Origin: a phage
DNA length: 64,000 nucleotides
Strand: one strand, 5' to 3'
Assembly: GCA_023551395.1 (NCBI GenBank)
Contig: GCA_023551395.1_3945.1
The translations under genes were made by a program, and so were the position numbers. The notes under the pieces are model-generated. The model searched no databases and was not told the DNA's origin. It saw only the letters and a list, made by a program, of their open reading frames with translations. How positions within the stretch are numbered: the first letter of the stretch is position 1; each line of letters opens with the position of its first letter. Below are positions 32,411 to 34,095 of this stretch, piece after piece.

Positions 32411-32680
32411 AAGGCTACTGCCATCCTTCCATACCTTACCTTACCACACCTAACCATACCTAACCATACCTAACCAAACTACACCATACAATACCTTGTT
32501 AAAAGACCCTTTTAAAGACCTTTTAAAAAGGTAAGTCTCATTTTAATGTAGCTGAGACTAACTACCCATACCAGACCCTACCTTACCAAACCAGACCTCA
32601 CCCTACCCCACCATACCGTATACTACCTCATTAAAAGACCCTCTTAAAGACCTTTTAAAAAGGAGCCTCCGAAGAGGCTA
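32411..32680. repeat. intergenic repeat element copy A (degenerate CCNWACC-type pyrimidine tracts plus conserved hairpin core)
   Basis: GGCTACTGCCATCC, runs of CCATACC/TAACC/AGACC units, and a core TTAAAGACCTTTTAAAAAGG + hairpin AGTCTCA...TGAGACT shared with 33811-34095. Confidence 0.75.
32655..32680 (-). terminator. intrinsic terminator (minus strand)
   Basis: On minus strand: stem AGCCTC/GAGGCT with TTCG loop then TTTTT; directly downstream of gene 32691-33131. Confidence 0.6.
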
Positions 32681-32690
32681 CCTAGTCAAC

Positions 32691-33131
32691 TTAGAAAGGT
32701 TTTCTGCGTTGCTTGTTAATGTTAGCTTTCATAGCAACTAAGTGGTTTTGCTGTTCAATTAGTCGTGAACGTTCTTGGTGGCTAAGTGCCATAGTGTTCA
32801 CATTCTCAATTGCTTGAGTAGCTTGCTTTAAAGCACGACCAATTTTACCAGACATTTTACGTTTTGCAATAGTTGCTTGATGTTTAGGCTCAACCACACG
32901 ATAACCAACACCCATTGAAGCAACCAGATAAATCTTCTCTTCTTTAAGAAGCTTTTCAATAAACTTCTCAAGTCGGTTTAGTCGTGTAAGTGCATAAGCC
33001 TTCATTTCATCTTCGTACTTAACAATGTCACCTTGATAAGTTGGCTTCACAATACCTAAGAAGGTATCCATCTCAGAATGTGATACAGTGTCACCGTAAC
33101 TAAACTTTGCTGCTAATGCTTTTGTATTCAT
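32691..33131 (-). CDS. hypothetical protein (cassette gene 2)
   Basis: 146-aa ORF between the two repeat elements, no recognisable motif. Confidence 0.45.
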   Translation of the reverse strand: MNTKALAAKFSYGDTVSHSEMDTFLGIVKPTYQGDIVKYEDEMKAYALTRLNRLEKFIEKLLKEEKIYLVASMGVGYRVVEPKHQATIAKRKMSGKIGRALKQATQAIENVNTMALSHQERSRLIEQQNHLVAMKANINKQRRKPF

Positions 33132-33133
33132 AA

Positions 33134-33736
33134 TTAAACGTTACCTTCTGAAATAACTTCTACAGAAAAACGACCAAAGCGTGGACGCCAATCACCTACA
33201 CCGCAAAGGTTACCAGCATTTTCCAGAACCATCAAGAGTTCCTCTTTGGTGATTTGCTCTTCATCGAACATCAAACCGAACTCTACAGACCAGTCACGGA
33301 AGATTGGACGGTAGCTCATAACTCGTGCTGTACCAATCTTAACAGACTTAGCATAGATAAAATCTGGATTCTTAGCAAGTTCTTGTGGGTTTGCTGGACA
33401 GTTCTTGATAGTCATTGGGAAGACTACATCTGTCAGCATAATGGCTCGGTCAATTACCTTACCAAGTTTGTTGAGTTTTGCACCAGACTTGATACAAGCC
33501 TCAATCATCTCACCGTTCATAACAAAACCTAGCTGCTCATCGTAGTAACAAGAGGTTACCAGTTGACTTTCTGCTAAGAGCGCATAGTCTTCGTCAGTCT
33601 TTTTACGTTTACTGGACAGAGACTTGTGATATTTTGTCAGAGGGTTTAATGGGTCTGACAACGTATCGTTATGGCTCAAGAAAGGACGAGTACCAGTGAT
33701 TTTGATATTTAACAGTTTCATAGCATTTAGCTCCAC
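33134..33736 (-). CDS. hypothetical protein (cassette gene 1)
   Basis: 200-aa ORF between the two repeat elements, no recognisable motif. Confidence 0.45.
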
Positions 33737-33810
33737 ACTTTAGTTGATTGTTAAGTTGTTTGTAAAGAACCCTCAACAGAAGACTCTTTAGAAACTTGGT
33801 AGATTTTTAA

Positions 33811-34095
33811 CGTGGCTACTACCATCCACCCATACCATACCGAACCTTACCTTACCAAACCAGACCGCGCCTTACCAAACCAGACCAAACATTACTTTAC
33901 CCTACCTCATTAAAAAACCCTCTTAAAGACCTTTTAAAAAGGTAAGTCTCATTTTAATGTAGATGAGACTAACTACCCATACTGTACCGCACCTGACCCG
34001 ACCTGACCAGACCTAGCATTACCGTGCCACACCGTACCGAACAGAACACTACCATACCTCACATCACTTAAAAACCCTCTTAGAAGACTCTTAAG
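33811..34095. repeat. intergenic repeat element copy B
   Basis: GGCTACTACCATCC, pyrimidine-rich CC(N)ACC tracts, and a ~60-bp core almost identical to copy A (one mismatch in the hairpin loop). Confidence 0.75.

Follow-up and report, generated by a model that had tools for sequence, protein, structure and literature searches.

A type II VIPR locus in a Felix O1-like phage: repeat elements around a two-gene operon as arrays of guide RNAs

What is the role of two long non-coding repeat elements that flank a pair of minus-strand genes in a phage genome? The elements lie in a 64,000-nucleotide stretch of phage DNA (GenBank assembly GCA_023551395.1, contig GCA_023551395.1_3945.1), which was analyzed as a whole and is hereafter called the window. 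A first-pass annotation, made from the letters alone, had offered a small structured RNA, replication-origin iterons, a recombination or cassette-exchange hotspot, and a regulator-binding array as candidate roles. We are nearly certain that positions 32397-34158 hold a complete VIPR (Viral Interference Programmable Repeat) locus, which is of type II and belongs to the SUSP1 clade, in a Felix O1-like phage. The repeat elements are arrays of guide RNAs, named vrRNAs, and the intervening genes encode the effector Vipr and the accessory protein Vap1. Systems of this kind are already known, and were first described in 2026 preprints (bioRxiv 10.64898/2026.04.26.720920, 10.64898/2026.04.26.720927). 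The residual novelty of the present locus is modest, and includes its own guide repertoire with predicted targets, effector-less guides, spacer hairpins, and slipped-register guide-target pairs.

The effector gene product is identical in 191 of 195 residues to the PDB entry 36pp, 'SUSP1 Vipr protein' (full length, E = 6e-128), and the four differences are at positions 18, 119, 188 and 189. Every residue named in the cryo-EM preprint (H17, K33, R39, E71, M72, K82, K88, R138, C173, D177, W178, R179) is the same in the window protein and in the deposited SUSP1 chain. Judged by this agreement, the protein would be a minimal RAMP protein with an RNA recognition motif (RRM) core, a G-loop, a thumb and the GGY-reading residues. 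Vap1 is identical in 144 of 146 residues to agp038, the 146-aa gene that adjoins vipr in SUSP1, and it is adjacent to vipr in the window as well. The Pfam search gave no family for either protein; in PHROGs, vipr corresponds to phrog_4652 and vap1 to phrog_5926. The vipr gene starts at the ATG at 33721, which has a GGAG ribosome-binding site, rather than at the GTG at 33736. The 200-aa open reading frame (ORF) that begins with this GTG is a product of mechanical ORF listing, the GTG being located at the 5' edge of the GGAG site. Wherever vipr is annotated in public records, it is labelled 'hypothetical protein'. More distant homologues of Vipr, 23-44% identical across ~95% of the length, are encoded by unrelated actinobacterial and proteobacterial phages (PQ184807, Gordonia; OQ594955, Pseudomonas LESphi2; OQ417975, Mycobacterium prophage; AY772740, Listonella phiHSIC), in agreement with the wide distribution reported for VIPR.

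The two preprints (10.64898/2026.04.26.720920, 10.64898/2026.04.26.720927) describe Vipr as a minimal RAMP protein related to CRISPR Cas5/6/7, and a vrRNA as a run of 9-16 YNNGG repeats followed by an invariant 3' tail with a pseudoknot. Each repeat is bound by one Vipr protomer, with GGY buried and NN presented. The NN dinucleotides pair with double-stranded DNA, each third target base being skipped, and the R-loop triplex silences transcription. It is competing mobile elements that are shut down in this way. Among the SUSP1-clade guides, targets were reported for 20 of 41, of which 18 are on an E. coli phage satellite; these targets are mostly coding, and the skipped base is at the wobble position. 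The preprint authors also propose that VIPR predates CRISPR. For SUSP1 itself, 10.64898/2026.04.26.720920 reports that vrRNAs of ~100 nt are produced, purify together with Vipr and repress the transcription of matching DNA, and that vap1 is an accessory gene of the VIPR operon that enhances protection.

The window belongs to a Felix O1-like (KhF3-like) myovirus of the Ounavirinae. Positions 33800-34165 (366 nt, the upstream element and the promoter) are 100% identical to Enterobacteria phage KhF3, and a 5-kb stretch around the locus is 93-95% identical to many Felixounavirus genomes. The locus is located between the DNA ligase gene and a gp86 homologue, in a neighbourhood of thymidylate synthase, dihydrofolate reductase, DNA ligase and DNA polymerase genes. 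The repeat search (family D1) revealed four repeat units, two upstream and two downstream of the two-gene minus-strand operon. The first-pass annotation was right about the location of its pair of elements, which bracket the operon and are GGT-rich on the transcribed minus strand, but not about their number: each element is a tandem of two units, and the extents are wider (32397-32679 and 33798-34100). On the minus strand, each unit consists of a spacer hairpin of ~20 bp, an array of 12-17 GGY-NN pentamers, and a 34-nt pseudoknot tail. The parts are given below in the order of transcription; conservation refers to an alignment of 14 Ounavirinae, including Mooglevirus and Suspvirus, over the stretch bounded by the stop codon of the ligase gene and the start codon of gp86.

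34131-34158, minus strand: sigma-70-type promoter of the VIPR operon (TTGACA-16-TATACT, 11/12 consensus, the best in 31000-36000)
34062-34100, minus strand: type II spacer hairpin before vrRNA1 (CAUCACUUAAG...UUAAGUGAUG, ~19 bp; the 3' arm overlaps the first repeats)
33979-34063, minus strand: vrRNA1 array, 17 GGY-NN pentamers
33945-33978, minus strand: vrRNA1 3' tail, pseudoknot GUAG/CUAC and 7-bp hairpin AGUCUCA/UGAGACU (the hairpin seen at first pass)
33903-33944, minus strand: type I spacer hairpin before vrRNA2, including the TTAAAGACCTTTTAAAAAGG core seen at first pass
33832-33906, minus strand: vrRNA2 array, 15 pentamers
33798-33831, minus strand: vrRNA2 terminal-type tail, GGGUGGAUGGUAGUAGCCACGUUAAAAAUCUACC (reverse complement GGCTACTACCATCC, as seen at first pass)
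33134-33721, minus strand: vipr gene, 195 aa, RAMP-like effector
32691-33131, minus strand: vap1 gene, 146 aa, accessory protein
32664-32679, minus strand: GC-rich intrinsic terminator after vap1, AGCCUCUUCGGAGGCU and a U-run (terminator scan), occupying the position of a tail hairpin
32624-32663, minus strand: type I spacer hairpin before vrRNA3 (RNA folding)
32568-32627, minus strand: vrRNA3 array, 12 pentamers (10 strict)
32534-32567, minus strand: vrRNA3 3' tail, pseudoknot and hairpin
32492-32533, minus strand: type I spacer hairpin before vrRNA4 (RNA folding)
32431-32495, minus strand: vrRNA4 array, 13 pentamers, AT-rich
32397-32430, minus strand: vrRNA4 terminal-type tail, GGAAGGAUGGCAGUAGCCUUAUAAAAAAUCUGCC (reverse complement GGCTACTGCCATCC, as seen at first pass)
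32346-32396, minus strand: AT-rich hairpin and U-run at the end of the locus (inverted repeat I1; mostly invariant columns in the 14-phage alignment)

This map accounts for the motifs by which the elements had been recognized. The sequence GGCTACT(G/A)CCATCC, present at 32413 and 33814, is the reverse complement of the terminal tails. The core (TTAAAGACC or CTTTTAAAAAGG) is found at 32512, 32644 and 33923, and the '60-bp core' that is nearly identical between copies corresponds to an internal tail plus a spacer hairpin. The hairpin AGTCTCA-N12-TGAGACT is present at 32534-32559 and 33945-33970; the T-run after it, regarded at first pass as a possible terminator signal, is the 5' arm of the next spacer hairpin, and the terminator scan flagged the GC hairpin at 32679-32664 only; the tail hairpins may or may not terminate transcription. 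This terminator is kept in all vipr-carrying relatives, and the promoter is nearly invariant in the relatives that have the aligned region (12-13 of the 14 sequences). The terminal tail of vrRNA4 is identical in sequence in nine vrRNAs of the 14 phages, and the hairpin at the end of the locus overlaps a promoter-like site of the next gene (32377-32349, promoter scan).

The arrays themselves are highly regular. Period-5 ACC arrays on the plus strand (GGT on the minus strand) occur in the window only at 32409-32498, 32546-32640, 33810-33899 and 33962-34041, no other triplet forms such a period-5 array in the window, and none was found in the KhF3 genome outside it, in line with the uniqueness claimed at first pass. 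The longest unbroken run of GGY at 5-nt spacing is 11, compared with a mean of 2.3 and a maximum of 3 in 200 shuffles. Over the four arrays, the triplets at the GGY position are GGT (44), TGT (5), AGT (4), GGC (2) and TGC (1). On the plus strand, both elements are rich in C and poor in G (87 C to 25 G, and 96 C to 31 G), with the GC skew reaching -0.58.

Among 46 unique arrays from the 14 Ounavirinae, G occupies the second position of the pentamer in 99% of cases, and the third position always holds a pyrimidine (100%). The entropy is 0.05-0.97 bits at the GGY positions and 1.9 bits at each NN position; the extraction rule for arrays partly enforces the GGY pattern, but not the variability of NN. 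Between phages, the arrays are ~60-70% identical, as against 95-97% for vipr and vap1. The arrays of 17, 15, 12 and 13 repeats are tandem YNNGG runs with conserved GGY and hypervariable NN, as in vrRNAs. It was this combination of a fixed periodic triplet with free dinucleotides that first suggested a protein reading the triplets, one per subunit. The arrays do not resemble a CRISPR array, in which identical direct repeats of 24-48 nt would alternate with unique spacers of about the same length, usually close to cas1/cas2. Their period is 5 nt, the 34-nt tails and the ~40-nt spacer hairpins are conserved, and variation is confined to gapped dinucleotides; a scan of nine neighbouring ORFs revealed no cas genes. 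A scan with Rfam 15 gave a best E-value of 1.2 and no match within the elements themselves, and vrRNAs are evidently not yet in Rfam.

The tails fold as the published model predicts. The internal tails (10 distinct) have 11 pairs, of which seven form the hairpin and four the pseudoknot stem, and 100% of cells are paired. Three of the hairpin pairs show compensatory changes (AGUCUCA/UGAGACU versus AAUCGGA/UYCGAUU), with one G·U pair included. The terminal tails (eight distinct, one of them from the satellite described below) have nine pairs, 96% paired, with four covarying pairs, two of which are in the pseudoknot stem. The hairpin GGUAG/CUACC and the pseudoknot GUGG/CCAC of vrRNA2 covary with GGCAG/CUGCC and AAGG/CCUU of vrRNA4. 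In the control, where the partner columns were slid, 25-46% of cells were paired. The covariation comes from few independent changes (2-3 tail types), and it agrees with the published hairpin-plus-pseudoknot model of the tail. Of the roles proposed at first pass, the small structured RNA is the one that proved right, in the form of vrRNA guides with a pseudoknotted tail.

A hairpin of ~19-20 bp precedes every array, with its 3' arm overlapping the first repeats. These hairpins fold much better as minus-strand than as plus-strand RNA: -20 versus -9.7 kcal/mol for vrRNA1 (z = -6.9 on minus-strand RNA), -14.8 versus -5.5 for vrRNA2, -12.4 versus -5.9 for vrRNA3, and -14.2 versus -9.8 for vrRNA4. 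Since the strand difference arises from G·U pairs, the spacer hairpins are RNA elements. Across phages they fall into two covarying types (I and II). We propose that they are processing signals (e.g. for RNase III) or the 5' boundary of the vrRNA; the accessible portions of preprints 10.64898/2026.04.26.720920 and 10.64898/2026.04.26.720927 contain no description of them. A sigma-70-like sequence in the type I spacers, TTAAAA-N17-TTTAAT, was considered as a promoter of individual vrRNAs and dropped because it is absent from the type II spacers.

A search with the locus by BLAST against 5,426 complete E. coli genomes detected a ~90-nt vrRNA-like sequence in 152 chromosomes. It sits in an island of ~11 kb that encodes two serine recombinases, tape-measure and baseplate proteins and an HNH endonuclease, besides several unknown genes; some variants also have a Dam methylase. 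The island, found at differing chromosomal sites (wrbA-ymdF, yciI-tonB), is the satellite described in the preprint and is present in about 6-7% of complete E. coli genomes. Four satellite loci were used:

L017, 10352-21070: E. coli chromosome
L018, 8606-19594: E. coli chromosome
L020, 3198-14876: E. coli chromosome
L019: IMG/VR contig

The satellite baseplate protein is 78% identical to the product of 18754-19530 (plus strand) of the window, and its tape-measure protein is 29-41% identical to the product of 16505-18730 (plus strand); these shared homologues fit a helper-satellite relationship. Three of the four satellite loci carry one vrRNA of their own, with a compatible tail, the terminal-type tail being not found in L020, and the stem of the satellite vrRNA tail is changed compensatorily (GUCG/CGAC). 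A tblastn search revealed no Vipr or Vap1 homologue in the satellite loci. One satellite guide matches other satellite variants at 80-85%.

To predict targets, each array was converted into a 5'-NNxNNx-3' pattern, and the published threshold of at least 80% of NN positions was applied. The NN dinucleotides of vrRNA1 (GA AT AG TC TC AC GT AC AA TA CT CA CG CA GC AC AT) match a 185-aa gene of the satellite at 27/34 positions in CP027445, 30/34 in CP139182 and 31/34 in the IMG/VR contig. In CP139182, from E. coli JX21CE35, the target occupies 2608067-2608018. The match is in frame, and every skipped base falls on the third (wobble) position of a codon. By chance, a score of 31/34 or better has a probability of 6e-16 per position, and the highest background score is 20/34. 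A 90-nt stretch of the gene around the target is present in 353 genomes. As a positive control, 22 of the 44 unique guides of the 14 phages had a match at 80% or more of NN positions when scored against three satellite loci with their chromosomal flanks, and all but one of these matches are inside the satellite islands. No guide reaches 80% within the KhF3-like genome itself, the highest value being 75%. An exact-pattern scan of viral contigs with 10-12-repeat cores of all four guides was empty; for vrRNA1 this is because two end repeats mismatch, and the trimmed core then found one contig. Overall, one of the four guides has a foreign target that obeys the 1-nt skip at the 80% threshold and follows the wobble positions.

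The other guides are characterized by slipped or missing targets. The vrRNA2 guide matches intergenic DNA of the satellite in a run of eight perfect repeats, which scores 21/30 when the rule is applied strictly. With a shift of one base its first five repeats are perfect too, giving 26/30 if one skip base is missing in the target. At L017 16343-16386, 13 of the 15 repeats agree if the target lacks the skip base that would separate repeats 5 and 6. Conservation of this site extends to 363 genomes, and a BLAST search with the idealised target found no register-restoring variant in the 5,426 E. coli genomes; the mismatch could reflect escape by deletion or a tolerated slip. The vrRNA4 guide equals the 11-repeat guide of phages tootiki, Mushroom and GLBO_sp7 plus a 10-nt (two-repeat) tandem duplication, GGTTAGGTAT. 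The 11-repeat form matches 19/22 positions across the -10 box and 5' region of the 185-aa gene, and the 13-repeat vrRNA4 only 17/26; the duplication has broken the register with the satellite promoter target. No compensating 6-nt insertion was found in any E. coli genome by the corresponding search. The register slips of vrRNA2 and vrRNA4 could have been left by insertions or deletions through which targets escaped in an arms race. A further match of vrRNA4, at 21/26, is located in AT-rich DNA between efeB and phoH of E. coli (L017:38173) and is probably due to chance. For vrRNA3, no target was found in the searched sequences, including viral contigs and satellite loci, and a scan of genome contigs gave two Bacteroidales matches, about the number expected by chance.

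Comparison of the 14 aligned phages shows conservation of 95-100% for the promoter, the two genes, the terminator, the tails and the flanking sequence, whereas the number of units varies from one to five. Felix O1 (FO1a; L006 3323-3604) has a single degenerate unit and no vipr or vap at the syntenic site, and its junctions look like a fusion in which one unit supplies the beginning and a second unit the end. S19cd (L014 2481-2920) has two vrRNA units, again with no vipr or vap at this site, and its orphan guide matches the satellite at 33/34. Vipr is encoded in 118 Ounavirinae records, compared with 231-260 that share the flanks; about half of Felix O1-like phages keep vrRNA units without vipr and vap. 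It can be speculated, with considerable doubt on our part, that guides and effector are uncoupled in nature, so that guide-only elements depend on Vipr that a helper or co-infecting phage supplies in trans, and the effector is a shared resource reprogrammed by parasites.

Several side observations concern the locus and its records. An 8-bp inverted repeat, GGTGAGTA...TACTCACC (34103-34142, minus strand), encloses the -10 box and the likely transcription start and is kept in the relatives carrying the aligned region; this repeat may serve as an operator or form a hairpin in the 5' leader. A strongly hydrophobic 48-aa ORF (phrog_22006; 34166-34312, minus strand) separates the DNA ligase gene from the VIPR promoter; it is present in tootiki, DaR-2019a and SA1, diverged in Moogle, and absent in FO1a, KhF1, Z31, Mushroom and CL1. 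The GenBank records of KhF1 (locus L002 2306-3970) and KhF3 have no annotated gene over the vipr-vap1 stretch, and the KhF3 record KT184315.1 has its arbitrary start and end within this locus, so that element 1 falls at ~50-320 of the record.

One alternative explanation is that the arrays are recombination or cassette-exchange sites for gain, loss and swap of the two-gene cassette, as had been suggested at first pass. The single unit with fused-unit junctions and without genes in FO1a, the two gene-less units of S19cd, the unit number of one to five, the 10-nt tandem duplication of vrRNA4 relative to tootiki and Mushroom, and the lower number of Vipr-encoding records than of records with the flanks all speak for recombination. 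The variable unit number and the loss of vipr-vap bear out one part of that suggestion, but vipr and vap1 are no exchangeable cargo: in the aligned relatives, what lies between the arrays is always vipr and vap1 or nothing, which points to recombination as a by-product rather than the function, and the cassette genes encode the very proteins that use the arrays. Nor does recombination alone explain why the GGY register is strictly conserved, why the tails covary, or why guides match genes of the satellite. We therefore consider this explanation very unlikely, and recombination between units is possibly a means of guide shuffling.

Still less probable, in our estimate barely worth considering, are two other functions. 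A replication origin, with the arrays as iterons or with the G-rich transcript as an R-loop primer in the manner of T4 oriF or ColE1, would suit the location among replication and nucleotide-metabolism genes and the strong promoter feeding a G-rich, C-poor transcript (GC skew ~0.5, non-template strand). Iterons, however, should be conserved 17-22-bp copies with an AT-rich unwinding element, and here the GGY triplet alone is conserved, with NN hypervariable among phages whose flanking genes are 95-97% identical. This is the opposite of a conserved protein-binding iteron, and it speaks against both the iterons and the regulator-binding array of the first-pass annotation. Moreover, Felix O1 keeps just one degenerate unit, about half of the relatives are without the genes, the same array type is found on E. 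coli satellites, and published data (10.64898/2026.04.26.720920) show the RNA to be a protein-bound guide. Equally improbable is a cis-regulatory leader or attenuator bound by a ring- or filament-forming protein, as TRAP on (G/U)AG repeats. The presence of vrRNA1 and vrRNA2 in the ~400-nt 5' leader of the vipr mRNA, the layout of triplets with 2-nt spacers, and the hairpins followed by U-runs would fit it, but two of the four arrays are downstream of the operon terminator, and a purely cis-acting role is at odds with the hypervariable NN positions and with guides that match foreign DNA. Vipr could still bind its own leader and so add autoregulation as an extra layer. The identification of the protein also led to the rejection of a TRAP-like attenuator, of arrays of primase-recognition or Chi-like sites, and of an R-loop origin. 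Low-complexity junk is contradicted by the register-locked hypervariable arrays, covarying tails, protein identities and foreign-DNA matches. Two-tier G-quadruplexes were rejected because conservation of the leading G of the triplet reaches just 77%, with TGT and AGT variants common, and a Rho-loading (rut) site on the plus strand as this strand is untranscribed here.

Under the VIPR reading, the strong promoter at 34158-34131 would drive minus-strand transcription of vrRNA1 and vrRNA2, followed by vipr and vap1, and vrRNA3 and vrRNA4 would come after the vap1 terminator. By the SUSP1 system, one Vipr protomer would bind per pentamer, with the GGY bases flipped out and buried and the NN bases displayed. 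The filament of Vipr and vrRNA would then pair its NN dinucleotides with double-stranded DNA, every third target base being skipped (5'-NNxNNx-3'), and the resulting R-loop triplex would block transcription, as was experimentally shown for the 98%-identical SUSP1 system. The vrRNA1 dinucleotides would be aimed at the 185-aa gene of the small integrated E. coli satellite, and the phage would use the locus to silence a parasite or competitor during infection. The ~20-bp hairpins before the arrays may serve as processing or boundary signals of the precursor transcript.

Several points weigh against this reading. Expression, Vipr loading and silencing by these four RNAs are inferred from the near-identical SUSP1 system. 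The vrRNA3 and vrRNA4 units are located 3' of a good intrinsic terminator, and transcription past the vap1 terminator is unexplained. The 17 repeats of vrRNA1 are one more than the maximum reported for vrRNAs (9-16). Of the four guides, a single one has a target that passes the published 80% threshold; vrRNA3 has none, and vrRNA2 and vrRNA4 need a register slip or a two-repeat bulge, against which the published one-nucleotide pocket speaks. Finally, searches of Pfam and PHROGs with the 185-aa target gene and its neighbours gave no functional assignment.

The locus shares with the type II VIPR of SUSP1 the gene pair (Vipr 98% and Vap1 99% identical), the position between the ligase gene and the gp86 homologue, the promoter, the GGY-NN arrays, the two pseudoknot tail types, the terminator and the targeted satellite. 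It differs in having two vrRNAs upstream and two downstream, where SUSP1 has one upstream and three downstream, in all four guide sequences, in the 17 repeats of vrRNA1, and in the 48-aa ORF between the ligase gene and the promoter. Class 1 CRISPR-Cas systems (Cas7/RAMP proteins on crRNA) are alike in that a polymer of RAMP fold runs along the guide with bases flipped out periodically, a variable guide is combined with a conserved structured handle, and foreign DNA is targeted. In contrast to them, VIPR has no repeat-spacer array, no cas1/cas2 adaptation genes and no protospacer-adjacent motif; its guide is non-contiguous, two of five RNA bases pairing with two of three DNA bases; and it is phage-encoded and works by repression. 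The TRAP sites of Bacillus resemble the arrays in their periodic triplets with 2-3 variable nucleotides between them and one triplet per subunit. However, the TRAP spacer bases are uninformative and the RNA is a cis leader, whereas the NN bases of VIPR are informative and the RNA acts in trans on DNA, and TRAP has no protein homology with Vipr.

VIPR is a recently described, minimal form of RNA-guided DNA recognition with a non-contiguous code, and the window holds a textbook example of it, which demonstrates that such a system can be picked out from raw sequence. The published targeting rule is reproducible with simple tools, as about half of the 44 guides from 14 phages match one family of E. 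coli satellites. For this phage, the analysis provides testable predictions, namely that vrRNA1 would target the 185-aa gene of the satellite, that vrRNA2 and vrRNA4 would be slipped-register variants, and that effector-less guides exist in relatives and satellites.

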